Shown here one piece after another: positions 30,713-51,981 of a stretch of DNA of 64,000 nucleotides. The stretch's first letter is position 1; every line of letters starts with the position of its first letter. The position numbers and the translations under genes are program-made. Under the pieces are notes generated by a model, which worked only from the letters and a program-made list of their open reading frames with translations, had not been told where the DNA came from and did not search any database. Origin of the DNA: Lepidodermella squamata (taxonomy: Eukaryota > Animalia > Gastrotricha); NCBI GenBank assembly GCA_047495785.1, contig JBLDXI010000036.1, positions 434,001-498,000 on the forward strand. Direction: 5' to 3'.

Positions 30713-30743
<31 letters not shown>

Positions 30744-30859
30744 TGGGCGCCAGCCGAGCCAATGACAGGAAAAGTGCTCATCGAGTAGACCGAACAAGCT
30801 CAGGTCATTAATTAATTTCCATTCTCTAAAAACACTTCCCACATATCATCCTCAAAGTA

Positions 30860-31174
30860 ATGGCTAAGCTGCTTTTAATCATCGTTATTCTGGTAAAATC
30901 GCCTTTTCAAATCCTAAATTCACATTGAAGGTGTTTTACACTTTTCTAACAGGCTGTGTTCAGCACTGTCTTGGTATCGGCATGGATATCATGGGGCGAC
31001 AGCTGCTATTTGGGCAGGAAAAGAGGAAACGGCCACTACGAAAAAAATGCAAGTGGCGACCGATGGGTGTGCATCCCGGGTCCGAAGCCGATTACCACAA
31101 CAGCGGCAAAGCCGACTTCGACAAAGGCTCCCGCGCGGCGTGCACCATCCGCCACAACGAGAAGGTCCGGTTGA
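30860..31174 (+). CDS. Secreted Cys-rich peptide precursor, copy 5 (one Cys loop plus Thr/Pro/Ala tail)
   Basis: MAKLLLIIVIL|AVFSTVLVSAWISWGDSCYLGRKRGNGHYEKNASGDRWVCIPGPKPITTTAAKPTSTKAP... Confidence 0.7.
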
Positions 31175-32293
31175 ACGTTGGTGGTGATAACAGCAATCTA
31201 AATCAGATGACCTAGGATGAGAAGATGAGGATACATGAGACGAGGTCCTGGAAAGCCCGAGGTTCAATTTTAATATCACAGATCGCCTGTATAGTGTTTG
31301 ATGAGTCAGCTTGAATAAAGAATAGGTTTTGTCTTGCTATGATGCTTGACTCGTCTTCGCCAATTCAGTGTCATCCTAAGCTAGCGTGGTGACGTTCCAC
31401 CTCTATTACCTATCTTTCGACTCCTCATTCATTGATTTTGATCAAAATATCATGATGTCGAACCCCATTTTTCACTTGTAACCTGTATTGCAGCCTTGCC
31501 AACTGTTAAATAACGTAAAAAGGTGGATTTTCGATGGCAGAAGTAAAACCGGATTTTGTTATCGCACACAGGTTCTATTTAAAGCTATAATTTATTTTTT
31601 ATTGAGCCTCCACTTCGCATATACATTCATAATTTGTTCATTTTGCTTTTTTCGGATGCAAATCTCACTAGATAATTTGCCTGAAGTAGACTTGCGCAAC
31701 CGAGAACGACCGACGATTTAGTGGCAGCGAAGACGGCGGCCGTTGGTATACCAAGCTTTATCGGACTCACTGCCAAATTTCGCCTCATCTTCGACAACTC
31801 GATAATGACCGCGCTACCCGCGTTTCCCAACCTGCGATATGCTGGGATGGAGGTGCCGGAAGGCTCAGGCGATTGTAAGTGGCTATAGCATAAGTGATGT
31901 GACATAAGTTTTTCTTTCTAGGTGCTTATTTTGACGGCTCGCCTTACCCCTCCGCCCCATCATTGCGATTCCGAGCGTGTACTGACGTAATCAGCCACGT
32001 TATCTGCCAGGACGCGGCCACGGTTAGTTGGAGTCTATAAACACAAGAAACAAAAAACACAAGAAGAACCCTTTATCGGAAAACATCAGGCCGGAAAATT
32101 CTTAGTGGCTCAGACCTGGCCAACGTAGTGCTAGAGATCGCTGATCGGCCTGACCAGTGGATCGAAATCAATTCTTCAAGCTGGTCAGGATCATAGCCAA
32201 ACAATGCCAATGCACAAATTCACATCCTTTTAACTCACAAATCTTTCTACACAACATTGAGGTCTGGCGATGTATGGGAAATATTTCTTAGCT

Positions 32294-33754: not shown

Positions 33755-34164
33755 AGTAGTTAGGAGGGGGAGGGGTGATTCCCCCTGGACCATGACCAAA
33801 GTGACGGTTAGGGTTAGGGTTAGGGTTAGGGGGAAGAATTGCCCCTCCGGGGATAGAAGTCAAATTTGAATTAACCCCCACGGTGTCTGGAGGGGTGGAA
33901 ATGTCCCGAAGGTGTCTGGAGGGATTGAATCGTCCCCACGGTGTCTAGCGGGATGAAAATGTTCCCGATGCGTCTAGCGGGGTTGATTTGCCCCAACTAT
34001 GTCTAGAGGGGCGGAAATGTCCTCACGGTGTCTGGTGGGGTTGAATCGCCCCAACAACGTCTGGAGGGTTCGGATCGCCCCACAAAATCTAGCGGGGTAA
34101 AATAAGTGTCATTGACCTGTAAAACAATACATTCCAAACCGTTTTATTTTACACCAAAACAAAA
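33755..34164. repeat. Maverick left terminal inverted repeat, containing (TTAGGG)4 and 8 x 29-bp subrepeats
   Basis: Reverse complement of 51572-51981 with only a few mismatches. Confidence 0.95.
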
Positions 34165-34203
34165 CAGGTTGAAACAGGTTGATAGATCATAAAACGATTT
34201 ATT

Positions 34204-35443
34204 TTAGGATTCAAAAAGTATGCGCAAGCTGTATACATATGGCGCGTAATTAGTAGTAGTAGAGTGATGACGATAAATCGAACGGTGCGTGCGCAATTTT
34301 CGGAAAAGAATTTTACGTGTGGAGGGATTGCAGCGTTCGAGTAGCAGTGAGATCAGTTGGGAGTTTTTACTAAACATCACAACATTGAAAATACTGCTGT
34401 GGTGTAGATCCACTGTTGCTGACCAGTAATCACGATACGCTAGATGTGGTCGCATGACCAAAAAACTCCGGAAACGTTGAATATCGTCAGGTGATATTGA
34501 CGCAGTATTCAGCATTTTGATGAGAGACGTAGCCTGTGATATGATAAAACGATAAGATGAAAACCCACTCAACAAGGTAAAACATACTGCAGCCATGTTA
34601 CGTTGGTAATGCGGCGTAATGATACGCAGATCCTTTGCGTCGGAGCCTTCGAAGAAAGTTTTCGGGAATCTTTCCTCGGGATACACACGAGTAATATCCC
34701 ACGGCATGACATAACATCCACCACGGGGGTAGTCGACTAAGCAGTTCCAATCAGTGTGATATTTCTGGAACATCATAAAATAATAGCAAATCAAAGCGAG
34801 TTGAAACATACCTCGACCGATTTGTAGTCATTATACCATTTGACTGGGGGTGGAATCAGGTAATTAAAATTCGAGTCCAATAGTGTTGAAGGCGGCCAGG
34901 TCTTACGGATTGGAGGTTTCAAAACGTCGAGCATCTGAAATATGAAAGGAAAAATGAAAACAACCGAGAGATATGAGTAAATCAACTTACTTCAGGACAA
35001 GAACTGCTAATGATGCGAACAATCCACCAAGGTCCACAAGTTATCAGATCATAGTCTTCGTAATTTTCAAGGCTGGTAACTTTTTTGATGAATTCCTCAC
35101 GCGTCATCTTTCCGACATCACGCACGTCGCCATGGTAAAAATGATATGCAGTCGATGCAACGAAATTCTCGCGGAAAAGTGGTTCAGACTTGAATGCCAA
35201 GGCGAAACGATGGATGGATGATCGATCTACTCGGCATCGAATTAATTCATAGCCTTTCGCTTCACCGAATTGTGCTTTGACCATTTCCTCCCAGCAAAAG
35301 CTGCTCGAGATAATTGTATGCCATTGATGGCACACCAACGTGCAGACTTTGAAAACTTCCTCAGTGTCTAGGTAGCTCAAAATTTGAGCCGCAAGTTCTG
35401 CGGTAAGCTCAAAATGTAAGAAATTCATAAACAATTTAGACAT
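34204..35443 (-). CDS. Maverick cargo: F-box protein, 3 exons
   Basis: N-terminal LTAELAAQILSYLDTEEVFKVCTLVCHQWHTII (F-box). Introns GAA|GTAAGT..TTTCAG and GAG|GTATGT..TTCCAG join ORFs 34982, 34791 and 34204. Confidence 0.75.
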
Positions 35444-35768
35444 TGTAACTTGGAATTGCTAGATCACTGAGCAAGGCTAAAGTAATACGGCTACTGCTCC
35501 TACCAAAATAAGTTTCCGGATACTCGGGACATGTGCCAACGCCCGCTGATCGCACTTTCTCATTAGTGAGCGGTGCGCTGTACTCATTAAGGGCTCATTA
35601 TTGTACCCGGTAGAAGGTGCTGGTTTACTCATACTCATTAACTGCGAACCAAGTTGATCCAAATAAACCAGTGTGATTTAATATTTATTTGAAACCAAAG
35701 CAAACGAGTGGTGCCACCACCACCACCGCCGCCAACACAGGTTAACAGAAATGTCTATGCGATGGTAA

Positions 35769-36806
35769 TTATTCATATATGATATTATCCCAGTCAAGGG
35801 CTGTTTCTACAACATTAGCAGGCGTTGTTAAAAATCCGAAAATTGGTCGTTCCGTTTCAGGCGCTTGCATATTCGCAGACTCGCCAACAGCGGTTAATGT
35901 GGGAGTAGCTGTCGACAAGTGTTCCTGTTGATTAGCTAATGCTTTACCAAACTTGGTTCGCTGTAGACCTGCAATAATTGGAAAAGATCCTTTTGCTACC
36001 ATGTCCAGAATGGGCTGGTACAGCATTTTAGCGCTCCGTGAGTAAGAACTCGGAGCAGTTGAGACAACTTCAACTAGAGTTTCAATAGGTATAGGAACCG
36101 CGGGTCTATCAGGAGCTCCCTGAAAGCTGATCGATTTACCGTCAGGATTGAGATTGTAAATTGAAGTTGACGGTTTTTCTCGTAAATGGTTAAGCAGGCC
36201 AGCAACTCTTGGTTTGACGTGACTGGGTAGGCGCGATAATTGCGATTTGAAGAACTTTTCCGCCGCCGTCGCTTGCCCAGATGGGTCAACTGAAGCTGTA
36301 CTGGGCTCAGTGGGACCTGAAGGTGCAGAAGCAGTTTCATGTCCTTGATAAGCGTCCCACTGCGGTTGAGCTTGCGCTGGTTGAGGACGGTTCGCAAACC
36401 TCATATAATTGTGTTTCAACTGCTCCAATTCAGTGAAAAATTCATTATACAATCGAACAGTTTGTGTGTTTGTCACAGGCTGCTCAAGCGTAGATGATAG
36501 CTTTGACTCCAGCTCCTCCAATTTATCGAAAAATGGGCCATCGTGAAACTTTTGCTTAGTCAAAGCTCGGCGCTGTAGCAAGTCACTCGCGGTCAAAGAA
36601 TCGTCGCAATGGCGTGAATTAGAAGCAGGAGGAGGAGGAGGAGGGTGCTGATTAAAACCAGAGTCCATCGACGAAGTTGAAGGTGAAGAAGAATCCTGCA
36701 TTAAGAGTAGTTTACGGCAATGTTTTGCAGGTTTAGCCGGGGTAATTGCTGAGGGAGACGTTGCTGGCGTTGAATACATTACTCGTAGATCAATGATCAC
36801 CACCAC
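35769..36806 (-). CDS. Maverick uncharacterised protein (345 aa)
   Basis: Long ORF directly downstream of the PW-like gene, with helical segments KLEELESKLSSTL..LYNEFF and LP..VKPRVAGLLNHL. Confidence 0.65.
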   Translation of the reverse strand: MVVIIDLRVMYSTPATSPSAITPAKPAKHCRKLLLMQDSSSPSTSSMDSGFNQHPPPPPPASNSRHCDDSLTASDLLQRRALTKQKFHDGPFFDKLEELESKLSSTLEQPVTNTQTVRLYNEFFTELEQLKHNYMRFANRPQPAQAQPQWDAYQGHETASAPSGPTEPSTASVDPSGQATAAEKFFKSQLSRLPSHVKPRVAGLLNHLREKPSTSIYNLNPDGKSISFQGAPDRPAVPIPIETLVEVVSTAPSSYSRSAKMLYQPILDMVAKGSFPIIAGLQRTKFGKALANQQEHLSTATPTLTAVGESANMQAPETERPIFGFLTTPANVVETALDWDNIIYE

Positions 36807-37194
36807 GAAGAGATAAAAGTCGCTCTACTATTGTAGGTAAAACACTTGCAGCGGCTGAAATTAGAAGAGGAATGAATGGACCAGAACCTTTTTGGATTAG
36901 ATAATTCCGGTTGGAATCAAGTGATTTGCTGCGAGAAAGTTTCGTTATGTCGCCTTTATATGCTCTGAGTCTACGTATGGTTTTTGGCTCGCCTGCCAAT
37001 TTCTTACGGAGCAGATTCAAGCAGATTTCCGACAGTAGAGCTACAACGCTAACTGGGGCTACCGCCAAAAGACGACGCCTCTGGCTCGGTGGTGATTGAG
37101 ATAGCAGCTTGAAATAGTCGATCGTTCGACTTTGTTTAGCCAATCGAATGTTAGCTAGACGTTTGTCAGGTTGAACCTTTTTATTTTTGACCAT
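36790..37194 (-). CDS. Maverick PW-like basic protein
   Basis: LSEICLNLL...LR.YK...LIQKGSGPFIPLL pattern, including a QxGxG adenain-type cleavage motif. Confidence 0.7.
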   Translation of the reverse strand: MVKNKKVQPDKRLANIRLAKQSRTIDYFKLLSQSPPSQRRRLLAVAPVSVVALLSEICLNLLRKKLAGEPKTIRRLRAYKGDITKLSRSKSLDSNRNYLIQKGSGPFIPLLISAAASVLPTIVERLLSLRGGDH

Positions 37195-37267
37195 TTAAGC
37201 AACAGAAAGCAAAATCAAGTAGTAGTAGCGCTAATACTAAGATTGTGCCAATGTTAATGTTTATGCC

Positions 37268-38141
37268 TTATATACTTATCGGTAGGTTAAGCGTAGGTAC
37301 ATCCTCAACTTTCACGAAAACGTGGCCGTTACGATTTCCAATGAAATCCCTGAAGCGTAAAAAAGGTGGGCACTCGGTTGTGTTGTCAATCACTAGATAT
37401 CCGTAAGGCCTGCTTGTTGCAATCTCGAAACTTTCTATAAAATATCATATGATAAATCATACGTTAATAAGTTCAAATGGTCTTTGATTTACCTTGGAGA
37501 AAACGCCAGTCCTTAGCCATCATTTGTCTAGCTAGATGGCTGAACTGTGTCATATCGCATGGAGATCGAAATACCACAATATATCGAGCATTTAGCGCCA
37601 AATCTCGCGAGAATTTACCTCTAAGGAATTAATGAAATAATTAGAAGATCATAATTTGGAATCAAGATTTGGGAAGCAACTTGGGAAAAAGGTTGTTCTG
37701 CGTCATAATTACTGAAATTCGACTGTGATGAGACCCTCGATAGAACAGTTCGGCAACCGCTTTCAGATCTCGAGCATCGGCATAATTGTCATCGAAAATT
37801 ATCAGTGTATGGTTGAATCGATGTCCTAGCATGTAATCAGCTTCATGAAATGAAGCGATGTCACCTCGAAACTCGATTGGAATTCCCCGAACAGCTAGCA
37901 ATTGCCTACTCAAATCCTGATGGCTTGGCTGAGCAATTCCGCGATACCATACACAACGATCAATAGGTTTATCGAAAGATTCAGGATAAAGCAGGATGTC
38001 AGTCAGTAATGTTGACTTGCCTGCGTGGCTCGGTCCTGTACTTGGAAATGAATTGAAACAAAAATGTTGTCTAATGATGTCTTTAAAACCTGAAACAATA
38101 ATTGTGCAAGGTGACTTGAAAGCCGTCGAAAAGCATACCAT
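37268..38141 (-). CDS. Maverick genome-packaging ATPase (A32/FtsK-like), 4 exons
   Basis: Spliced: TIIVSG|PSHAGKST (Walker A), LIIFDD (Walker B), SHHSRISVIMTQNNLFPK|GKFSRDLALNARYIVVF...LARQ...FLQ|ESFEIATSRPYGYLVID. Confidence 0.93.
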
Positions 38142-38218
38142 TTCAGAAATTTTAGGCTAATCGGTTAATTTATGAGCTCAACGAAGTTATTTACATATTA
38201 CTATTTTATTATTGCTAC

Positions 38219-38728
38219 CTATCTCTTGACTCTTGAAGTTTCGAAGCATTGTAATACAAAGCGATCTACGAAGTTATCGTTATCTTCCCTTGTATTGCGC
38301 CCAAAATTGGTGACAAGCGACACTATTCTTGGAATCGAATAACTTCGAGCAGATAAATATAGAAAAACCAGGCTGTATTTGCCGCAAACATCGCTGTCCA
38401 TCGACTGCAGTGCTGTGTAGTTGAATGATTGAAACTTGCGGCCGCAGTTAACCATATTTTCCAGAAAATGATCAATGTGAACAGAATAGTTTGCCGGCTG
38501 CATGCCATAAGAATCCATGAATTTAACGTAGTCGGAATTGGCGTGAAGGGCTATCCAATGCGTTCCTGGCGATGAGCTGGGTGAGGCGTTAGCTATCAGA
38601 TACAACGGCCTCTCACTAACATCCCAGTTTTCGTAAAGTGGTAAATGATTGCATGGAATCGTCGCATACGTACCGAGAGATATTACCGGATCGGAACCGA
38701 GAAGCGAATTCAACTCCAAAGTGTTCAT
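38219..38728 (-). CDS. Adenain-like cysteine maturation protease
   Basis: PGTHWIA (His), FMDSYG (Asp), LQSMDSDVCGKY (Gln/Cys). Confidence 0.93.
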   Translation of the reverse strand: MNTLELNSLLGSDPVISLGTYATIPCNHLPLYENWDVSERPLYLIANASPSSSPGTHWIALHANSDYVKFMDSYGMQPANYSVHIDHFLENMVNCGRKFQSFNYTALQSMDSDVCGKYSLVFLYLSARSYSIPRIVSLVTNFGRNTREDNDNFVDRFVLQCFETSRVKR

Positions 38729-38738
38729 GAATAGTAAT

Positions 38739-40089
38739 TTAGAAGAAATTGTGAATTATCGTTCGGTTCGATTGAATTTCCAAAACTTTGTTTTTATACT
38801 CCATCAAGCAAATCAGCGTTGATGCTTCGGGTATTTTCTCGCTGAAGACAAGATTCATCTGCATTTGACCTGTCTGAATCAGCTTTCCGTTCGGGTCGCT
38901 GTCCAAACTCGTATCGAACCCAAGGATTGTTCCGCCATCACTAATGAACTGCTCTCGACTGATTTTAACACATTTCGAATTAGAGTGGGGAAAGATTGTA
39001 TCTTGCATCAACTGATAGATTCTGGAAACGTCGTTCGTTTTGAAGTTCATTGCCATTGGAGTGGACGAAATCGGCTTCCCATCAACCGTTATTGTAATTG
39101 AGCTCAAATTGTGATGCATGAAATTGAAGGGGTTCTTCTTTCCAACCCCCTGCAAAGTGTCGTCCGCAATTATGCCTGTAAGATTAAGAAAGAAAACGAA
39201 TGTACGATTCCAGTCAACTGCTTAAGAACCTACACATGATCAGTTTTGAGGGTAAAACTCCCAGAACGAGATTGTTCAGATGGATCGAAGTTACATTCAT
39301 AGGCAGGTTGAATGGTTTCGCCACAATATGATTGAAGGAATATTTAGCCGGAGCGACTTGCAATGCCCGCTCAAGGCCGATTACAACCTCGGGAGCTACT
39401 TCGACACGTCTCACGAGTAGAACACATTCAAGAATTGTGAAGTCGTATTTTGCGACATCATCACTCATGAGAAAGAATTCCTTCTTGTTTTGAGTTAATT
39501 TCAAACGAATAGGCACGTTTGGGATCAACCATTTTTCCTGGTTGAAAAAGTCAGTCTGAAGACGGCCGCATAGACTAATGACAGGGTTTTTGCTTGCGGT
39601 CTTCACCAGGTTTAGACGCTTTTTGAACCCTTCATTAGCAGTCAAGCTGTTCATTTGCCCGAAAGTATCCAAATACCAACCCGAGTTGGTCAACTTCGAG
39701 CTTTGAACATCTTCACTAGCCGATAGTAAGGTTTGAAGATAGCTCGAATAGGCATGAAGACTGGTGTTTTGAGTTATCAGAGTTTCTGAAACCCAGATAT
39801 GCACGTCCTGCCAAAGACTATTCAGCAAATTGTTGACAGGGGCGCAGTTGAAAAGGACATCGGTGACATTCTCGTCATCTGTCGTAATGCTAGCTCTAAT
39901 AGACAGGTAGCAGCGACTGAGATCGGTGTAGTGCTCACTTGGTGGAACTTGAAAAGTGATCTGCTGCCCCGATGTGATAGCCGATGTTGGGAAAACCTCA
40001 GTGAAATGGGTTCCGAGAACTTCTCGAGTGATCGGAGGTAACGCGAAGCTGGCTAGCTCTGCACGAATAGCATGAGTTTCTTCACTCAT
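38739..40089 (-). CDS. Major capsid protein (PY, double jelly-roll), 2 exons
   Basis: [45 protein letters not shown] motifs; intron 39176-39233. Confidence 0.92.
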
Positions 40090-40096
40090 CTCTGTA

Positions 40097-40181
40097 CTGG
40101 TTGGTTGGTTGGTTGGTTGGTGGGTGGGTTGGTTGGTTGGTTGGTTGGTGGGTGGGTTGGTTGGTTGGTTGGTTGGTTGGT
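40097..40181. repeat. (TGGT)n microsatellite immediately upstream of the MCP start codon
   Basis: About 21 tandem TGGT units with two TGGG interruptions. Confidence 0.9.
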
Positions 40182-40278
40182 AAGTGAGAACTAGAAACTA
40201 CGATTTTCCAAAGTTTTATTATTATAGTCTGATTTTCTAATCTTTACATAGTAGAAGTAGTAGTAGTAGTAGACTAAT

Positions 40279-40740
40279 TTAGAACAAGATGCGAGCATCA
40301 TTTCCAGTCTTCACTCGCTTTGATGGCATTATCATCGACAAAGTTCGTTTCGAATTTTTAGCTTTGTTCCGACGACGCTTTCGCGAACCCTGACCGTACT
40401 GATTGGCAATGTGACTGACCGCCTGTTTCCCAATACTAGATAGTCCTTCACTACCTCGGTTTTTAATGATTTCTCCAAGCTTGAGCTCGTTGCCTGATTG
40501 TTGGCGATCAGCAACATCTGAGGCAATGTTAGCAGTAGTAACAGCAGCAGTTCGTAATAGATTAGGTAAAAAAGGTAGAAGAGTCGAGCGAAAGAATGAA
40601 CGCAAAAACGAGCCCAGCCCATTCCCGCGCATGACCACAACAGATGGTCCAGTGAAGGGTTGGATTGATGAAGATCCGCCTCGACCGGTTTGCGAGAGAA
40701 ACCATGAATAATACTCATCACTTGAGATTGGAACACGCAT
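40279..40740 (-). CDS. Maverick PM-like / core protein with protease sites and an amphipathic helix
   Basis: QTGRG, MRGNGLGSFLRSFFRS..LP, QYGQG, followed by a basic RKRRR tail. Confidence 0.75.
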   Translation of the reverse strand: MRVPISSDEYYSWFLSQTGRGGSSSIQPFTGPSVVVMRGNGLGSFLRSFFRSTLLPFLPNLLRTAAVTTANIASDVADRQQSGNELKLGEIIKNRGSEGLSSIGKQAVSHIANQYGQGSRKRRRNKAKNSKRTLSMIMPSKRVKTGNDARILF

Positions 40741-40757
40741 ACTCTTGATGGTTTATT

Positions 40758-41906
40758 TTAACCCTGACGGATAGGTCTTACATGTAGAATAGCCAAAGAT
40801 TTGTTCGAGCCTGTGAATTTCACTTTAGACCCATCATCTTTACATAGTAAAATTGTAATGCAATCGAGAATCTGACTACGAATAGTATGGTAGTAAGGCA
40901 TCGATTGAGCAAAGTTCGTCACAGAAAACTGCTTCCGCGCATTGTCTCCAGTGCCAATAGGGAAAACCCTCAGTAATTCAACAGATTTGTCTCCTACGAT
41001 CGTCGGCTCAATTATATCGGTGTATGCGTAAATCAGAGGTGTGTGAAACCAAAGTTGGTGCGGAAAATCCGCCAGCAGTGGGTCTTTAACAGCTCTGTAT
41101 TGAATATCCGCAACCATCTTAGCGCTTCCATCTGAAGCTTTTTGGTACAGCGTCAGCGTTAAAATTCCACTCTCATCCTCGCTAAAGGTCCGTTTCGGAC
41201 CATGCATCGTCGTTATTCGCTTACCAGAGTCCTTCCCAGCCAAGATGAATTTTAAGACATGCGAAAACAAGGATAATTGTTCACGCTCATGCTTGACGCG
41301 TATCTCTTCTGCCTCTTCCGGTGTTTCCACAGCTGTAACATCCTCATGAGGTGGGACGTTGATTAAAAGCGTACCCTTTTCAAAGCCGAGAATTTGAGCC
41401 AAGAATTTTGGCAAGTAGATGCCATAGCCAACTTGTGGACAAAGTTCGATGCGGCTTTTCCGTTCGATAGGATACATAGTTATCATGAAGCCATCGGGTA
41501 TCGCGCTGTTCATGTCATCAATGAGCTCAGCAATTGAAGTGTAAACGCGATTGCCAACTACACACTCCCTGAATACATCAGGCTTGTCGAAAGGGGGTGT
41601 AATTAATCCATCCTCAGCCAAGTAGCTCGTTTTAAACACGTAAAATGATGTCTTCTCGACAGTAATCATCTCAGCAGGGTGAGTTATTTCTACCAGGGCG
41701 ACTTCATGCGAATTCATGAATCCTAAATCTGATTACCATGAAGATTATAACAGAAACTTTTCAGAATTTATTTGAAATTTACCTATTGGATGTGGCAGCT
41801 TGATTTTGAACTCGGCCGCATTATTGTTGGGATACAGAGATTCGCAAGCATGGCTCGGGAGATGGATAAAGAATTCGCGTCTGAAATAGCTACTGTGATG
41901 ACTCAT
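40758..41906 (-). CDS. Minor capsid protein (penton, PX), 2 exons
   Basis: Exon 1 FFIHLPS...YPNNNAAEFKIKLPHPI, intron 41729-41782, then EVALVEI ... IYAYTDIIEPTIVGD..LLRVFP ... LHVRP. Confidence 0.88.
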
Positions 41907-42294
41907 TGAAAACAGGATCAAAGCTGATGTCTGTTGACTTCAGGTGGCAAAAGGGCAAGTTTTCAGTCGACGCTGCAGCTACTGCTGTTGTTGTTAATTT
42001 CGGTGATTGTGTCCACAGAAGCGGCAGGTATACTAACACCGAGGATAACAAGAGCAAAATCAAGCTAAGGACCAGTACAGTAATTTTCTTTGAGCGGTCT
42101 GAAAGCTGTGAAAAAACGGCACTAGGACTGGGCGAAACCTGCGGTGCTCGTAGATTGTTCGTAAAGTATTGACGAATTTGTTGAAATGTTAATTGGTGTG
42201 ATTCATTCGAACGTGACGAAGCGTTACGTCGTAGATTGCCCGAAATTTCAGGGTTGGAACTTGACTGCATTATTGAAGTAGCCTTTATATGCAA
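41890..42294 (-). CDS. Small single-pass membrane protein of unknown function
   Basis: Hydrophobic stretch ITVLVLSLILLLLSSVLVYLPLLW; lies between the integrase and penton genes. Confidence 0.5.
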   Translation of the reverse strand: MHIKATSIMQSSSNPEISGNLRRNASSRSNESHQLTFQQIRQYFTNNLRAPQVSPSPSAVFSQLSDRSKKITVLVLSLILLLLSSVLVYLPLLWTQSPKLTTTAVAAASTENLPFCHLKSTDISFDPVFNESSQ

Positions 42295-42345
42295 CAGTGT
42301 CGGTAGATTTCAAGGTGGCAGCAAGGCATCTCCCTTTACATAGTT

Positions 42346-43464
42346 TCAAACGTGTTGCAGCTCATAATCGTAGAGGACACGTTTTAATTCCTTGGCTCTC
42401 GTATTCAGCTCAGGTGAGACACGGTAAGCCACAGTGGAGTGATCGTTCGCCGGTAGGACATTGGTCACGAAATAATAATCCTCACTAAACGTAGGATCTT
42501 TGACTCGATTTCGAAATGTTTTTCGCACCTCCTTGATACGAACTCGATCACCAACTCTGAAGTTGACTCGAACTTTACGCAGTTTCTTATTGACTTTGAA
42601 CACGTTTCGAAAGGCTGAGTAGTTATCCACATGCTCCTCGTAGACATTCATGACTCCTGGTTGACTGAGATCTTCATTTATCACTGGATCATGCCTCCAC
42701 AGTTGGCTTGGAGACATTCCAGTCGTTTTGTTCACGCAGTGGTTAATTGAATCGACAAAGTCCTGCAACTTGTCAACGAACCGTTTTGTGTCGTTTGCCA
42801 TCATGTACCTCACGATCCGAGACCTCAAATTGAAAATAAAGGTCTCAATACTTCCGACCTTCTTCGTGGACTCGGAAAGATAAATGCTGGATCCAATCTG
42901 CTTCAAATAAGCCTTAACTTTAAAGTCCTTGAATTCAGATCCTGCGAATTAATTATCCAATGGTCTTAACAGTAGCTATATAATCACAAATGAGTCACCT
43001 TTATCGGTCAGCACCTGTGACGGAACTATGCCTGCATCAGTGACAATCTCTTTGAGAGCCTCCAATACTACCGCTCCGGTCTTGTTTTTGCATGCACGTG
43101 CCCATGAGTAGCGCGTAAACAAGTCCTTTATCACAAGCACATACTTTTTCTTGAAATTGTGCCACTGAAAAGGTTTCGTCAGCTCCAACAAGTCGGCGGC
43201 AAAACACGATCCTTTGGCAAAGATCGCTACTCTGCGATAAAGCTTCCTGTTGCGAGTTGACGCTTGTCGAAACCTAGAATATGCCGGTTGTTGGCTGAGC
43301 CAATGTTTAACCGATTTAAGCGTGATTAGTTTGTTGCCTAGGGCCCGCTTTTTCGCAGCAGCGTACACTGCTTGCACACCTCGGAAACTACTAGATAAAC
43401 TAGGACTGTAATATAACGGATGAAGTATGTCATCGAGATCGGTGAATTCAACTTCATTTAGCAT
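42346..43464 (-). CDS. Maverick retroviral-like (rve) integrase, 2 exons
   Basis: YY.P, V..WL..Q.AY, AADL (D), KYVLVIKDLFTRY.W, TDKG|SEF (D), IETF (E), FRVGDRVRI, YDYELQ; intron 42942-42998. Confidence 0.93.
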
Positions 43465-43566
43465 GATTGAAAAGTTTTATTCGAAAGCAATGTCAGAAGT
43501 TTCTATTTATGCATTTTAGAATCAGAATTATCATGTCCCCAAGCAAAAGAAAATCATTAAAGAAGT

Positions 43567-46500
43567 TCAGTAGCCAAAAGGTTTCGTTTTGTAACTTTCA
43601 GTGTCTGTTATAACTCGTTTGTGATATTTGAATGATAGGTTTTTCATAACCTCCATTATCATCACTCGGGCGTAATCGGTGTGGTATCGACGCCACAGAG
43701 TTTGCTGCAGTTGAATTGAATCACCTTCATTCGCAACCTTCATAAGATTGAGCAGCTTATCGAAGTCAACCTTATTCTTGACAGCCTGGTTCTGGGTGAA
43801 ACCTTTCAGTTTCATGCTCAAGTTACCCTTATTAGTAACATACGAGTACGTCTTCGGGGCAAGCGCTAAAAATCTTGTAGACCACAATGTGCAAACGGTT
43901 GATTAAAACATTTGTTTGCAAATAGAAATCTACCTTTCAATGTGTTCTCCTTCCGATAGTTCATTCGACCAACTACCTAGATAGCTGCCTCGGTTCAATG
44001 GTTCAGGCCCATCTGGTTTCGAAATGTAGATGCAGCTGTCGGTGTCGCAATACAATGCAACACCTTGTAGATGCCGTAGCTGCTCAAAGAGAATCAATCG
44101 AGCTTCAGCGGTAATCATTGCAGCTGTGACGATATTTGCACATGGAATTGTGGGTTGGAACTCAAGCTTCTTCGCATGACCAATGCGCATTTTTTCACCA
44201 GTTGGGCACCCATCATATTCGTCAGCTAGCTCAGGCTTCAACCCATCAGAGTCATCCTCACGGTGAAAAACAGTCAGATCTTGAACGATGCAACCAGGTT
44301 GATTGAGGATTTTGACTAGTTCCATGGGTGAGTCAACGTAGGTGTAGTCGACGGAGTCGGATCGAAGTCCCAACTTGCCATAAGCTATAGTTACGTATCA
44401 GTCAAATCTAATCCATCACTACACTCCAAGCTAAAACTTACCACTGTTGAGAATCAGTTTTCCGATTTGTCTCATTGCAGCATTCGGTCGACTCAGCTTG
44501 ACCCGATTAAGCTCAATGCCATAGAGCTTACGACAGTTGTTGACATAGTCCTCAACTTCTGATTCATTGCAACCGCTGGCCTCCAGTTTGATCTTTTGAG
44601 ATAAAGATAAAAGATGAAATTTCATGAACGGCAAAATGCTAACGTATTTACTTTTAGCATTGCATAAATGAATGATCGGAAGAGGTTCGACGTTTTGCTG
44701 TTGTAGTGATATGACTCTAACATACCGTCAACAATTAGAAGACGAATATCGCACATGTCTCAAGAAATTTACCGTAAAACCTGAGAACTTGATACATTTC
44801 CAACTCAAGTCCACGTCGTAGTTCTGAAGTTGAGACAAACACATTGAATGCCCGCTCTTCGTCAGCATGCTGACATTGCTCCTGGCATTCTTCCTCGGCA
44901 CATGTACGGCATAGCGTAAACAAAAGGCGACCCTTGGCTGTTCGGTATGGAATGCATGGTAGGTAGAATCCTGCAAGTTGATTGAACGATTGATTATATA
45001 TTTTGCAAATTTGGAGAATTTGAACCTCGATTGGGCAGTAGTAGAACATGCACCATTCCAAAGGTCGGATTTTCAGCATTGAAAAAGTGATGCCGGAGTT
45101 TCAAGTCATCGTTGCGCCAGTCCAATACCTTGTGATCGACTGGGCCAACAGGGAAGAAGATTTCTTTGAAGCCATTTGAATCTGAACCTAATACGACAGG
45201 ATTTGACATATTTGCTCAAGTAGTTCTAATCCTACCAATCCTTCCACTGAGCACTGATGGGTATAGGGATACAACATCGATGTATTTGATGGTTTCACCT
45301 GGCTGAGCTTGGTGATGCAGTTGGAACACCTACGCAAACTAGAACACTTAACTTTTTTGTTTTCGAGGAGGTCGAGTATCACCTCTGTCCGGCCACCAAA
45401 GTATCCCATTCGAGGATTCACAGCGCTGACAACATTGACACACCTTTCGATGTACTCCACAATTCGCACATCGGCTTCTTCGAGCATCTTCTTCGCCTGA
45501 CATCCCCAGATGGAAATTACCTTGTAGCCGGAGTTGATGATGGCCTGCTCACGCTTGATAGTTTCATCGTACAGTTTGTGGAACGGTAGGCGCCTTGTTG
45601 GTTGTATTTGCTTCGGATCGTAGCAAGTTGGGCAGCCATGGATGTAGTCACCATAATATTCCCAGAGAGTAATCACACCGGTGGTTTCATCAACAGACCA
45701 ACCATCAGGTCTCGCAAATCGTAACCCATTACCATTTTCAAGGTAGAAAGTTTTTTCGCCATTCGAGTTTCCCGCATGCTTGATGTCGATGCCAAGGGTA
45801 GTGGCCATGTAATCCAACCAGATAACAGATTCTCGTGAGCACCTCGCACTGGTATTAGGTTTCATTAGCCAATTTCTTAAATTCTAACAACCTGACCAAA
45901 ACTCACTTTGACCCATAGCCCATAGGAGGAACCAGATGCATGGGTGTTGACGGGTCCAAGTATAGAAAGCGTAATATCAAACTTGCAAGAGCAGCCAATG
46001 TGCGACATTCTGAACACTCAGATCAGGGTAAATGAAGATATTCACAAGTTTCAGGACTCACCCAACAGAGGATCGATTCCAAGTGGGGCTTTGACAGGAT
46101 CGATTGTGATCTCCTTGATCGTTTCCCGGAATTTCAGAATTCCGAATCGGAGAACATCAACATCAGCGATGCAGTAACTAGTCGCTGTGGCTTTTAGATT
46201 GAAAACTGCATCATGGTTAGCAGCGATATGCTCCTTCAATTTTTCGAGTTTGACCGGCGACATATTGCTCGTGTCGTAGCTTTCGATAGTTGGCCACGCG
46301 GTGTCAGTAGAATTCTCCCAGTTTTCAGGTGTAAGAAGTAGATAGGGAAAAAATTCTTTCACGATGCCCTGGGGAAGATCAAAACACTGTGGCAACTTTT
46401 CCAGCGATGTGTAAGTGAACAGGTATAAATCTCGGAACAGAATAGCCGAATTTTCAACGTTCAACTCCATCAGAGAACTACCGTGCTGAATTTGGGTGAA

Positions 46501-48734
46501 ATTCAAGTCACTAGTTTGCAGGAATCTGTTTAAATTGTTCAATTTCAAATTTTATGATAAAGGCTGCTGTTGTTCAAGACTAGTTACCGTAGAATGAAGA
46601 AATGATCGAATCTGTAAATTATCATTTTATCACTATCATCGTTTTACTCGGCGGATTAAATCTGATCTCACCTTGCACCGTTTTGACTGATCAAGATTAT
46701 TCCAGGGTGTATTCGTAGAACATAGCGTACAAACGTCCCAATAGCGGTTGAATCGGCCGATTGTGACGCGAACACAAGCTGTCTCCGAGCACCACATTTG
46801 GCTGGACATGGAACATTCATTGGCGACTCGCAGCAAGAGTCACAGAAGACTTGCAGTACCACGAGTACGGGAATCAGCTCACCGTTGGACGAGCGGCGCA
46901 CAGATTCAACGTCCCATGCGCCAAACTTGACGGTTTTACCAGGCTTTACCACTTTCAACTTGGGGATTTGTAGTTTGCAATCGTGCTCGTTTTTCTCACC
47001 GTAGGGTGGAAGCTCTTCGCTACACGTTGGGCATGTTCTTGGTTTACCTAGGTATATCCGCTATACAAGGGTTGGGTTTTGCTTTCAACTTACAATTATG
47101 CTTTGGTTTGTAACTTTGAGTTATCACCCGAGCACACCGGTTACAAAAGTAACGCGTCTGGCAAATCGACCGTCGTTGGTTGTCTCTTACGTTCGGTTTA
47201 AGATGCTGTTCGAAGCATTCTCGATTGTAATACGAGTTGTTGCAGGGGCCAGTGCAAAGGATCGGCTTTTCACGTCTCTCCTTGCAGTTCATTGTTGCAG
47301 AGTGGCATCTGTCGCATCGATTCACACACTTGTGTCGGATCAAATCCTTCGTCATGAACCAGCATGATCCGCAAATACTCTTCCTACCAGATATTTCACC
47401 TGTGCAACCTAGGTTTCGGACTGGATGACGATGTATCGATAGAGTGAGACGGTTACTTACTTTTCAAAGCGTGGTAGTGCGACAAGCTTGTGGCTGCAGG
47501 CCCACGGTTTTGATGAAGTCTGTTGTTTGCGTAGCCAATGTATATTCGCTTCTCACCATCGACTTGGGGACCTTCAGGGTAGACGGTTGTGATCCGACGA
47601 GTTGCGAAATTGTATATTATTCCTAAGTTTAAAAGATGTGCACTTTTCCTTCATTCAGCCACTCACTCCTTCGCTCACCTCTATACCCATGTCCAAATGA
47701 GTCAATCAATTGTTTGAAATGTGAAACTCCGTAGGCAGGAAGGTTAAGCGGGATTCCTGCTATGTTCATCTGCTCAACAGCCAGATCTCCCAAATTACTG
47801 TAGCAACGACTAGCCGGTTGGTTGATAGCCCACAATTGTTGCTTGAGCCTTCCAAACTCTCGTTTCGCTTGAGCCCTCTCATCAGCATCGGAAATGTTTC
47901 TGCATGCTATTGAAGCCAATTTTGAATCGCGGTAAGCCTTCGATAGCATGGTTGCCCTTATTAAGCAGTAGTTGTCTGTAGTATTAACAATTCGCATGAC
48001 TTCGTTGCAACTAGTAATGGAATCGAACGCAGTCATTTCCAAACGCAGACGTTTGAACTCAGGTTTCGGTCCACCACCTTCACATTCAGCTTCAGCTTCG
48101 ATTTCTGTAACTTTCACTCGAAAGATGTTGAAAAACCATCCTATTTTAAAATTAAAATCACGCCAATATTTGATGTTTGGCACTAGGTAAGATGTACCCA
48201 TATTCATAGATGGAGATATTTTCGATTGTAGAACACGTTCTGCCGTTTTCATGATGAACATTCCGGTGAGTTCAGCCACACGCACGTACGGGGTCAAGAT
48301 GGGCGTTACCAGGTCGTCGTGGATACACTCCACTCTGACTACATCTCTATAGGTTTTGATAGGTTCAATGAAGAGACTATTAGAAATTATAACACAATTT
48401 ACCGTGCAGGAAATTGTCGCTTTACTGTTTGCGCAATTGACTCGAAGAAAAGATGAATCGAAACCAGTAGCGTCAGAATGTCATCGGTCGTAACCCAGTT
48501 GAATCCCAAATCTTCCGTGTTGGGACTGAGCTCTCCAGCACCTAGTTGCATTAGAGGCAATGTTGCGCCTTGTGCATATTTATGGACATCCATGCGGTAC
48601 AAAGGGCTGTACTCATGAAAGCCTAGATGTATTAAACTCGATAACTCTTGAGACATTATTTGAAAAATGTGATAAATCCCCATCTTTTTGCACAGCTTAA
48701 ATACAACACTTTTAATTGGATCGTGAGAACTCAT
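43567..48734 (-). CDS. pPolB: Protein-primed family B DNA polymerase with terminal-protein region, OTU-like and Vsr-like domains; more than 12 exons
   Basis: Spliced motifs: ERVLQS (TP region), DNYCLIRA...HYH (OTU Cys/His), Cys-rich fingers, WDVES (ExoI), NGAR|FD (ExoII), YCIADVDVL (ExoIII), PDGW..WEYYG..HGC (Vsr-like), GGRTE, DVVSLYP, KLILNS|AYGK, YCDTDS, PKTY, KGF, PFGY. Exact start codon uncertain (48656 or 48734). Confidence 0.93.
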
Positions 48735-48852
48735 TATTTTATTTCAGACGCCTGGCACATCATGTCTGCCCCGCTAGACAAAAACTTTCAGACAAAACAA
48801 AAACACATGCAATTATTCTGCATGAGAGTTGATCGAATTCAATTAGTAAGAT

Positions 48853-49335
48853 CTACGGGGATGTTGGGTTGTAAATTGGGCTTGCAGATCCTGCAGCTAC
48901 AACCTCGCCATTTGTTTGTTCTCCAGATGGTAGCGACGATGGCGGCGGCGGCGGCGGTGATGTAGGTGCGTATGTAGGGGATGGTGGCATCGCATCGCGC
49001 TCGGCTTCTTCTTCTTCTTCTTCATCATCATCGTCATCATTAGCAGTGTCTTCTTGCCAATTGATGGCCGCCGTTATTTCGTCGGCGAGCTCCGACTCGT
49101 CTTCGGATGATCCTAAGCTGATCACTTCATCCGATAGCCGGCGCCTAGCAGTAATTCGAGGTAACAGCCAGTTCGACTCAACTCGCTTGGCGATCGACTC
49201 AGATGTCTGAGTACCAATTGAACAGGACTTGATGAAGAGATGGTCAGCTGGGCGCGAAATTGTTGATGATCTTCGATGAGTGATGACATGGCTTTCGTCC
49301 TCCGATTTTTCAATAGTAATCATTGCACGCTTCAT
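48853..49335 (-). CDS. Acidic low-complexity protein with a SIM-like motif and two Pol II CTD-like heptads
   Basis: EVISLGSSEDES, a poly-D/E tract, SPT-YAPTSPP and SPI-YNPTSP at the C-terminus. Confidence 0.6.
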   Translation of the reverse strand: MKRAMITIEKSEDESHVITHRRSSTISRPADHLFIKSCSIGTQTSESIAKRVESNWLLPRITARRRLSDEVISLGSSEDESELADEITAAINWQEDTANDDDDDEEEEEEAERDAMPPSPTYAPTSPPPPPPSSLPSGEQTNGEVVAAGSASPIYNPTSP

Positions 49336-49387
49336 GATAGCTGGTCGACTTTTGTGCTAATAATAATATAGCTGCTGATAAAACTGT

Positions 49388-49981
49388 TCAGACTACTAGG
49401 CAGTAATTTGCAATGGCAGTCAAAAAGTCTTGAATGTGAGTCGTTAGGTTGCTCATATCTTCGCCACCACCGCAGCCAGTCAAGCATATTCGCCCTGTAT
49501 GAAACAGGTTTACACATATTCTAGTACCGAACACATGTTTGCACCGCATCGCAGGAAACCTTGTCAGATCTAATTTCACTTGTTCGCAGATTGTGGTAAT
49601 TTCCGACGCGAGACAGGGCCCTAATTGGGGTTTAAAAGGCAATTTACCAGTAAGCGCGCGATTAACCACTCGGTAGTTCGTGAAAGTAATTCGTGCGTCT
49701 AGTTTTCGCTGCATTCGTCTTGCCAGTTGCCTTGCTACGGTTTTAGATTCCGTAAATTTGACATTCTCTCCAGGCGGTCTCGTCATTAGTAAGACGGTTT
49801 TTCCATTGCCAAAAACCAGTGCGGTATATTTCACTGGTTTAAATTGTTTGATAATAACAGCGTTCGGGAACGATTTCTTGATTTCACAAAATTTGAACTG
49901 CTTCATTACTTTACGGAGAGGTAAACGAACATTCAAGTTAAAAACTGAGACAATATTTCTGATATATAATTCAACTTCCAT
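49388..49981 (-). CDS. TBP-like: Divergent TATA-binding protein (TBP)-like protein, intronless, encoded by the Maverick
   Basis: Two TBP repeats: RNIVSVFNL..L.L...KSFPNAVII...P..TALVFGNGKTV...ARQLARRMQ...F.NYRVVN...F...TRFPAM...RICVNLFHTGRICLTG, aligning with TBP QNIV..KRFAAVI..TALIFSSGKMV..ELFPGL..LLIFVSGKVVLTG. Confidence 0.85.
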   Translation of the reverse strand: MEVELYIRNIVSVFNLNVRLPLRKVMKQFKFCEIKKSFPNAVIIKQFKPVKYTALVFGNGKTVLLMTRPPGENVKFTESKTVARQLARRMQRKLDARITFTNYRVVNRALTGKLPFKPQLGPCLASEITTICEQVKLDLTRFPAMRCKHVFGTRICVNLFHTGRICLTGCGGGEDMSNLTTHIQDFLTAIANYCLVV

Positions 49982-50185
49982 TTAAAAAAAAAACTGAGCA
50001 ACTGACACATTTCAACGTTTCACCATTTATTTAATTATTTCGCAAAAAAAATCCAAAAGCATTCTAATTTCTGCTGAAGCCTATGCATGCATGCATGCTT
50101 GGTTTTTCCCTATAAGTAAAGTAATGTGATTTTCATTGTGTAAGTCTCTCGCTGTTTTCTTGCGATTCATTTCAGTTTGCTGCAT

Positions 50186-50920
50186 CTACTTCGACTCCAG
50201 GGCTTGTTGAACCGGGTTTGCCAGAATACTGTATATCATAGCTTGCAGCTCCAGGAACACACCCTCTGGAATACAGAAGCCATCTGGGGTGAATTCAGCT
50301 TTCTCTTCCGATCTTTTGTTAAGAATTCGTACATCAACGTACGCACGCGGCGATCCGTCTGGGCGAAACACACGAGCATGTAATAGTCCGATAATTACGT
50401 ACCTCGGTCCGTTACGAGCTCCGTTACGAGTCTTGAGGTCGCGCTTGACTTTATCGACCCAGCCGTGAGATCCTTCAACTTGCATAGTTTCATAGAGCAT
50501 TCGTAGCTCCTTAGCCGATAGCCAGAGACCCTTGCGGAGGTAGTAAAGTTTGTTTGCTTCAATGGCATGCCCGATGTAGAATTCAAGATCGGGTAGGTAC
50601 TCGTTCAACTGCCGGCGCAGAATAACAAACGAGTGATCTTTGTGACTCGTAACCGTCTGCAGTGAAACAACATACTGAGCTCGGTGGAATCTACAGATTT
50701 CATCGAAAGGTGAAGACCCATCGCCCCAGACTCGATCAACGTATCCTTGAGGTGGTAGCAATGGCCCGTCGGTATGTACCATTTCACTTGCTGCTTTCAT
50801 CAATATCTCATCAGATAGTTCGAACGCAACAGCTTTCAGCAAGTTTGCATCATTCGATGGTGACGACGGGGGCGCAACATGGTCGGCTTCCTGTACTGCT
50901 TGACTGCTAGAGCTTGCCAT
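50186..50920 (-). CDS. Putative tandem PC4-like ssDNA-binding / coactivator protein
   Basis: FVILRR...LRKGLWLSAKELRML and AYVDVRIL...FTPDGFCIPEGVFLEL both resemble the PC4 motif YVDIR...PxKKGISLxxEQWxxL. Confidence 0.55.
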   Translation of the reverse strand: MASSSSQAVQEADHVAPPSSPSNDANLLKAVAFELSDEILMKAASEMVHTDGPLLPPQGYVDRVWGDGSSPFDEICRFHRAQYVVSLQTVTSHKDHSFVILRRQLNEYLPDLEFYIGHAIEANKLYYLRKGLWLSAKELRMLYETMQVEGSHGWVDKVKRDLKTRNGARNGPRYVIIGLLHARVFRPDGSPRAYVDVRILNKRSEEKAEFTPDGFCIPEGVFLELQAMIYSILANPVQQALESK

Positions 50921-51571
50921 TGTAACTAGATTGATCCTGATAGCTGCGAGTATAAAAACAAAACTTTTTAGTATCTATAAGCCGAACTTAGGCGCTTATA
51001 TACACGTCCAATTTGATGATCCAGGCATCGTCGCCGCCGCCGCCGCCGCCATTTTGCTAGTTCCCACCGTCTACCCCGATGTCTGCAATGTGTTCTTGAG
51101 ACATGATCGGTAGGCTTGATAGACATATATCTCGTAACCAACCTAATTGGCGCTGAATAAATAGGTAGACAAAATCAAAGTCAGAGCACAATTACTTTTT
51201 ATTTTTCAAAGCTTATTTGCTTTCCAACTCGATCTGTTTACTTTTCAACACTAAAAATGAATAAGGAAGACCTTACCGCCATGTGAGTGCTTTTGTGATA
51301 GAGCCCAGGTAGTCAGTTTGACCATACATACTTTATTTTCTACTACAGTGAAAGCAGGTTAAATGAACTGAGTTTTCGGTTACATTTCATCAAACATTTG
51401 ATACCTCAACTATCATCGCATACAGCACGATTCCTTGAAGACGCCGAGGAGGTCATCTTCCGACTACGTTTCGGATTGCTGTTGGCGTCAGAGCAGATAG
51501 CTAACCCGTCACCCCTCAATACGAAGCCCTGGGCTCAATTCTTTAAATGAACTACTTAATATTAACTTTGA

Positions 51572-51981
51572 TTTTGCTTTGGTGTGAAATAAAACGGTTT
51601 GGAATGTATCGTTATACAGGTCAATGACACTTATTTTACCCCGCTAGATTTTGTGGGGCGATCCGAACCCTCCAGACGTTGTTGGGGCGATTCAACCCCA
51701 CCAGACACCGTGAGGACATTTCCGCCCCTCTAGACATAGTTGGGGCAAATCAACCCCGCTAGACGCATCGGGAACATTTTCATCCCGCTAGACACCGTGG
51801 GGACGATTCAATCCCAACAGACACCTTCGGGACATTTCCACCCCTCCAGACACCGTGGGGGTTAATTCAAATTTGACTTCTATCCCCGGAGGGGCAATTC
51901 TTCCCCCTAACCCTAACCCTAACCCTAACCGTCACTTTGGTCATGGTCCAGGGGGAATCACCCCTCCCCCTCCTAACTACT
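51572..51981. repeat. Maverick right terminal inverted repeat
   Basis: Inverted copy of 33755-34164, ending ACTACT and followed by the TSD AATGCA. Confidence 0.95.

Follow-up and report, generated by a model that had tools for sequence, protein, structure and literature searches.

A constrained, apparently re-tuned TBP and a candidate private late box in a Maverick element of Lepidodermella squamata

We analysed a window of 64,000 nucleotides from Lepidodermella squamata; all positions given below are those of this whole stretch. The sequence points to a constrained, re-tuned viral TBP in a Maverick that also carries a candidate private late box, TATGTAAA. In our main reading, which we hold at a probability of about 0.5, the Maverick's own TBP reads TATGTAAA and provides a late-gene switch that uses host RNA polymerase II. 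Little is known about how Maverick genes are timed, or about whether integrated copies go through a virus-like late phase.

The TBP gene lies inside a Maverick element

The element and the genes that the argument needs are as follows.

33755..51981, minus strand for all genes: Maverick/Polinton of 18.2 kb, with AGTAGT ends, inverted repeats and a 6-bp target duplication
50186..50920, minus strand: 244-aa ORF, immediate upstream neighbour of TBP, with a canonical-type TATATAAG box ahead of it
49388..49981, minus strand: two-repeat viral TBP of 197 aa that can be read without an intron (ORF, Pfam and PDB matches, model)
48853..49335, minus strand: 160-aa ORF directly after TBP, with an acidic run and the CTD-like words SPTYAPTSP and SPIYNPTSP; candidate partner
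43567..48734, minus strand: pPolB in pieces with intron-like GT-AG intervals; PF03175 on one piece (E 7e-8)
42346..43464, minus strand: retroviral-type integrase, split in two by an intron-like interval; PF00665 (E 1e-7)
35769..42270, minus strand: likely virion block (membrane-like ORF, minor capsid, core, major capsid, protease, ATPase and two further ORFs)

Mavericks/Polintons are elements of 15-20 kb whose terminal inverted repeats have AGT-type ends and which duplicate 6 bp of their target. All of these features were found here, and Pfam matched both pPolB (PF03175) and the retroviral-type integrase (PF00665). The inverted repeats (33755-34164 and 51572-51981) are 410 nt long and 99% alike, and the flanking target duplication reads AATGCA on the plus strand. 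In run X1, 33748 and 51982 are connected within one contig, which represents the empty site; this allele and the intact ends suggest that the insertion is young. Run X1 is probably the window's own source, from one study; the sister copy described below is still a distinct sequence. An earlier note on this DNA, made from the letters alone, had called the TBP virus-encoded, and its position inside an element with inverted repeats, target duplication, pPolB and integrase agrees with this.

Several further features of the element and its surroundings were recorded. Run X1 also contains internally deleted derivatives of the Maverick, with junctions at 34485/50988 and 35574/48959, and the second of these would retain the TBP end. 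Within the inverted repeats there are four units of the telomere type TTAGGG and some seven tandem units of 29 nt. In the flank, nested inverted repeats at 29053-31693 are probably another DNA transposon, and one flank gene resembles a ligand-gated ion channel (Pfam, E 8.5e-5), which points to an animal host.

GT-AG intervals, mostly of 46-62 nt, bridge the pieces of pPolB, integrase, capsid and ATPase in frame (37268-48734, minus strand), so the core genes are predicted to be intron-containing rather than decayed. About 19 introns are predicted in this interval, some of them likely over-called; the TBP gene needs none. The labels within the virion block are presumptive and follow Maverick motifs, gene order and size, and the tools added one weak P-loop match (E 0.057). 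No match to the TFIIB family was found among the 22 ORF pieces at E<=0.1, several small ORFs being without any match. A 111-aa ORF (48402-48734) that by eye resembled a TFIIB cyclin fold was not accepted as one, since it seems to form the opening exon of pPolB. Near the element end lies an F-box gene (34982-35443, minus strand; PF12937, E 7e-8) that is probably spliced to a further exon.

The two neighbours of TBP were also examined. The two words in the 160-aa ORF resemble the heptad consensus of the Pol II CTD. Such a pair arose in 0 of 200,000 residue shuffles, and these words are the only two in the six frames of the window. When the ORF was compared with another copy in run X1, 7/7 listed differences were synonymous. 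A complex prediction for TBP and residues 55-160 of this ORF gave a score of 0.02. By eye, two possible PC4/Sub1-like repeats can be made out in the 244-aa ORF; family and database searches returned no significant match to it and did not confirm a PC4 identity.

The 197-aa ORF is a two-repeat TBP

The ORF at 49388-49981 is uninterrupted over its 197 aa, as the earlier note had stated, and the absence of an in-frame N-terminal extension was likewise borne out, with an in-frame TAA directly before the ATG; an upstream exon is still conceivable. PF00352 matched it in two stretches with 50 bits (cutoff 22.9), and 34/34 PDB sequence matches at E<=1 were TBP-containing chains (best E 3e-7). A structure model made with a 63-row TBP alignment reached a pLDDT of 94, which is partly circular as support for the fold, since a single-sequence model reached only 34. 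This model covered the TBP core over residues 1-196 and matched TBP cores with a TM of about 0.8, a Z of 19 and an rmsd of about 2 A; the top 38 VIA structure entries were TBP chains. By sequence and by model, the ORF is a genuine two-repeat TBP with a predicted saddle fold. No TATA-like box was found within 250 nt upstream of its start. An ATGC-repeat palindrome (50084-50098) lies about 100 nt upstream of the start.

The viral TBP is under purifying selection

A sister TBP copy in run X1 aligned over codons 1-172 with 81% DNA identity, showing 101 differences over 533 nt and no gaps. The dN/dS of about 0.17 derives from the 34 of these 101 differences that are visible, in codons 94-137 (44 codons), with the stirrup and the F38 region outside. 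There, 18.5 synonymous and 15.5 replacement changes gave a dS of 1.02 and a dN of 0.18 (Fisher p 4e-5), indicating that the viral TBP is under purifying selection. N107, R108 and A109 are the same in the sister copy, R108 and A109 despite silent differences. A third, closer copy has nine listed differences and a stop at codon 166. The low ratio and the gap-free sister copy indicate that the viral TBP is not a decayed host gene, which was also the view of the earlier note.

The DNA face is largely kept and the TFIIB face is half lost

Residues of the viral TBP were compared with canonical TBP positions, using the yeast labels of Table 1 of PMC12529657. The canonical positions matched are N9, F57, N107, F142, P143, F160 and T168. 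They include the central pair of repeat-initial Asn residues (N9 and N107), both noticed earlier, and the Pro after the third Phe (P143). The claim that all four intercalating Phe residues are present held for three of them: F57, F142 and F160 are exact, and the first canonical position is taken by P39, with F38 one residue off. HMMER alignments against PDB TBPs, MAFFT and a query-free profile all paired P39 with the first canonical Phe and F38 with the Arg before it; one alignment, with 17 short divergent rows, placed F38 on the first Phe by opening gaps. From its loop, F38 may still reach the DNA.

In the first repeat, the DNA contacts V11, L55, F57 and V63 stay as they are in TBP. There, L65 and M66 take the place of the Thr-Gly that follows strand 5 (T124/G125), and a 6-residue insertion comes next. 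On the DNA face of the C-terminal repeat, five positions are changed: V161 to A109, I194 to R146, V203 to C156, L205 to N158 and V213 to C166. Most DNA-face residues are of TBP type and not of TRF2 type; where TRF2 differs, the viral protein has the TBP-type L55, F57, V63, F142, P143, F160 and G169. Basic residues are present at K45, K61, K148 and R164. Judging from these residues, the viral TBP is likely competent to bind DNA.

The stirrup reads L137-D138-L139-T140-R141 in place of YEPEL. The acidic stirrup had been described as lost; its second acid is indeed replaced, by T140, but the first is kept as D138, so that the two TFIIB-binding Glu residues of canonical TBP correspond here to one Asp and one Thr. 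In the other 65 rows of the alignment (two duplicates and two partial rows excluded), both acids are present in 59, only the first in three and only the second in three. The second stirrup Glu, E146 in Arabidopsis, is described in PMC10005294 as the stronger TFIIB contact. With this more important Glu lost and one acid staying, altered partners for the viral TBP are plausible on residue comparison.

The trees are compatible with a TBP or a TRF2 origin

Database searches gave 67 matches with identities of 24-40%, none of them close. The best single match was a rotifer TRF2-type protein whose score is inflated by duplication, and matches in BFVD were only 7-18% identical, below those of cellular TBPs. 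A search for the viral context of short divergent TBPs covered 37 loci; no Maverick gene was found in those examined (12 of the 37 via listed ORFs, plus 8 matched by the query), which resembled cellular fungal, protist or archaeal TBP genes. Quick trees placed the query on a long branch among the short divergent TBPs, without a starred group. AU tests gave p values of 0.55 for the query with TRF2, 0.61 with cellular TBP and 0.51 with three animal-type TBPs, on quick trees of 30 rows that had a very long query branch and were without the host's own TBP and TRF2. At the 12 columns that separate TRF2 from TBP, the query is TRF2-like at three, TBP-like at two and neither at seven. Group profiles scored it at 104 (short divergent), 70 (TRF2) and 65 (TBP); this placement was dropped because 6/10 other ungrouped divergent rows also scored best with the broad profile. 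The trees thus appear compatible with either origin, and neither host origin is rejected; the gene could also derive from other viruses.

A candidate late box precedes genes of the likely virion block

Four copies of TATGTAAA were found in the Maverick.

42335..42342, minus strand: TATGTAAA box (ACTATGTAAAG), 72 nt before the 126-aa membrane-like ORF that overlaps the likely minor-capsid start
40839..40846, minus strand: TATGTAAA box (ACTATGTAAAG), 106 nt upstream of the likely core-protein ORF (153 aa)
40243..40250, minus strand: TATGTAAA box (ACTATGTAAAG), 161 nt upstream of the likely major-capsid gene
38190..38197, minus strand: TATGTAAA box (TATGTAAAT), 56 nt upstream of the gene for the likely packaging ATPase

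All four lie on the gene strand, with none on the opposite strand and 0.3-0.4 expected; the 45.8 kb of host flank contain one copy. ACTATGTAAAG is the sole non-microsatellite 11-mer present three times in the element core. An 11-mer common to three of the 14 upstream windows arose in 2 of 2000 shuffles, after correction for the choice of the best word. For words of 10 letters 20-35 of 2000 shuffles did as well as the observed word, and for words of 8 letters 73 and 124 did so. When random real windows were used, 175/2000 from the element and 476/2000 from the host did as well for the 8-mer, and 15 and 14 of 2000 for the 11-mer. The box was chosen after looking, and its corrected p is about 0.001-0.06. 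The start list used for the shuffles had one false start and missed the minor-capsid start; the corrected list gave the same four box matches.

TATGTAAA precedes four of eight likely virion-block starts and none of six others, TBP included (p 0.085). The likely minor-capsid and protease starts have no such box, the distance from box to ATG varies from 56 to 161 nt, and the box at 40839..40846 sits in coding sequence, at the end of the likely minor-capsid gene. All four boxes lie near the 3' end or stop codon of the preceding gene, and all contain TGTA. Relative to the nearest poly(A) hexamer, the box is upstream twice (89 and 30 nt) and downstream twice (46 and 13 nt), and this position on both sides weakens the view that the boxes are 3'-end signals; 8/12 gene ends have no box. 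Overall, the TATGTAAA signal is real-looking but moderate.

Canonical-type TATA(T/A)A occurs in 5/14 upstream windows. GTATATAAG was found at 50995-51002 (minus strand), 82 nt before the 244-aa ORF, and at 37267-37274 (minus strand), 80 nt before a 134-aa ORF; it is a candidate for a second, canonical-type promoter class. Between the likely major-capsid start and its box there is a (CCAA)n microsatellite (40091-40191), and ahead of that box comes an (ACT)n run.

A possible late-gene switch and its alternatives

The Val161 position of TBP has a role in excluding guanine. According to PMC1636458, the TATA box's 5' half is read by the C-terminal repeat of TBP, wild-type TBP accepts G at positions 3 and 6 only, and changes at I194, V203 and L205 of yeast TBP permit binding to TGTA. 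All three of these positions are altered in the viral TBP (3/3), and in either register, TATG or TGTA, its C-terminal-repeat changes would thus be concentrated on the half facing the G. Other divergent TBPs commonly have polar residues at the L205 and I194 positions too, which therefore do not fit TATGTAAA in particular.

In the late switch that we favour, TBP would be produced early from a promoter without the TATGTAAA box, and would then bind and bend the non-standard box TATGTAAA(G), A109, R146, C156, N158 and C166 leaving space for the guanine not tolerated by host TBP. Host RNA polymerase II would be directed to the capsid and packaging genes and recruited with the TFIIB contact weakened or replaced. 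The displaced first Phe, the replaced T124/G125, the third copy with its stop at codon 166 and the lack of a polymerase-binding domain like that of ORF24 all count against this switch. A more specific form of it is a minimal private Pol II late system: a TBP core and nothing more, adjusted to a box with a G that host TBP cannot read, would do without the normal TFIIB contact and be assisted by the CTD-mimic and PC4-like genes next to it; we regard this as tentative and somewhat doubtful. If the late switch is true, purified viral TBP should prefer TATGTAAAG over TATAAAAG.

Other functions would account for part of these data. The protein could be a general TBP substitute that acts on ordinary TATA boxes, such as the element's own TATATAAG and TATAAAGG sites, with host TFIIB still in use; TATGTAAA would then be a 3'-end processing signal or chance. 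D138 retains one stirrup acid, TATA(T/A)A is present before several genes, the 8-mer statistic is marginal, and every box contains TGTA and lies near a stop codon, all as this account would have it. It is nevertheless unlikely, for the boxes stand on both sides of poly(A) hexamers and are missing from most gene ends (8/12), the DNA face is altered where the box differs, and the stirrup Glu described as more important in PMC10005294 is lost. The half-lost TFIIB face, together with the largely kept DNA face and a still basic helix 2, would suit a decoy or repressor that binds TATA-like DNA or host cofactors without recruiting TFIIB and either dampens host genes or silences its own late genes while integrated. 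The F-box gene and the CTD-like words of the neighbouring ORF do suggest host manipulation; however, on the specificity reported in PMC1636458, a G-containing box needs no repression if host TBP cannot read it, and the herpesvirus precedent is one of activation, which leaves a decoy quite unlikely.

A role outside transcription, for instance one in which the saddle bends the terminal DNA during protein-primed replication, integration or packaging, appears very unlikely. The boxes precede gene starts and are not in the inverted repeats, and the known two-repeat viral TBP-fold proteins described in PMC7221094 and PMC12529657 act in transcription, whereas the location of TBP in the replication half, beside pPolB and a possible PC4-like single-strand binder, and the lack of a TFIIB-like gene among the 22 ORF pieces would fit such a role. 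That the gene is a decaying captured copy of host TBP or TRF2 is already largely refuted and hardly credible: dN/dS is about 0.17 with no gaps at a dS of about 1, the landmark residues are retained and a full saddle is predicted, against which stand an identity of only 20-33% to database proteins (MAFFT alignment), the stop in one copy, and trees that reject neither host origin.

Comparison with known TBPs and viral mimics

Most large dsDNA viruses with a TBP also encode their own RNA polymerase. Viral TBPs in general keep the DNA-binding Phe and lose the TFIIB acids, and most of these viruses have their own TFIIB (Ravarani et al. 2020, PMC7221094). The combination of Phe kept and acids lost is thus the published norm for viral TBPs and is unsurprising alone. 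The TBPs of large dsDNA viruses described in PMC7221094 share with the Maverick protein the two-repeat fold, the conserved DNA-binding Phe and variable stirrup acids; they differ in that most of these viruses encode TFIIB, which was not seen among the 22 ORF pieces of the Maverick.

For KSHV ORF24, PMC12529657 describes four kept Phe, absent TFIIB acids, a polar DNA face and a TATTWAA late box, with experimental support. This herpesvirus protein and its EBV and HCMV homologues, in the account of the same paper, resemble the viral TBP in having the Phe kept, the acids lost and a polar DNA face. The likeness extends to a virus without its own RNA polymerase and to a non-standard box before structural genes, here a candidate. 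ORF24, however, has 752 aa, binds Pol II through its N-terminal domain and has five viral partners (PMC12529657), whereas the Maverick protein is a bare 197-aa core encoded by an 18-kb transposon, has a different box and is known here from sequence. It has neither the large size with a CTD-binding N-terminal domain nor the C-terminal extension of the ORF24 type, and because these large extra domains are absent we do not count it as a member of the herpesvirus mimics, although under the late-switch model it would act in their manner.

Cellular TBP (PF00352; PDB 1ytb, 1cdw and 1vol) shares with it the fold, the Asn pair, three exact Phe and the equivalents of Pro191 and Thr215. It differs from cellular TBP in its identity of about 25%, the displaced first Phe, the changed second stirrup Glu, changes at Thr124, Gly125, Val161, Ile194, Val203, Leu205 and Val213, the 6-residue insertion and the missing N-terminal tail. 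A YRVVN-type stretch and an FxTG turn are shared with TRF2/TBPL1, but TRF2 keeps YEPE and loses DNA-face Phe, and the viral TBP shows the reverse. In place of the TRF2 pattern (a non-Phe first-repeat position, the third Phe lost, YEPE kept), F57 and F142 are present and the stirrup is changed; PMC7221094 gives Trp at the first-repeat position of TRF2.

MELD viruses with adintovirus-like PolB, which belong to the same broad virus group, also carry a TBP label (Starrett et al. 2021, PMC8502044), but in the text of that paper it is a figure-legend label only, in a section on non-animal datasets, with no analysis and no promoter. The engineered yeast pair TBPm3/TGTAAA (PMC1636458) is similar in that the same three positions were changed and TGTAAA is part of the box; it differs in the residues substituted, and the register of the viral box could place G at position 2 or 4. 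A literature search that included the supplements of PMC8502044, PMC10748475 and PMC7221094, with figures, subscription papers and preprint supplements outside its scope, found no report of an animal Maverick TBP or of its promoter box.

Implications

A single purified protein and a 9-bp site would suffice for a direct test of the late-switch model. If true, the model would show how a TBP can function with a changed TFIIB face, and the viral TBP and its box could be a natural orthogonal TBP-promoter pair, a counterpart of the engineered TBPm3/TGTAAA. For the Mavericks themselves, a TBP with a matching box would give a herpesvirus-style early-to-late switch, reached independently with one small protein.
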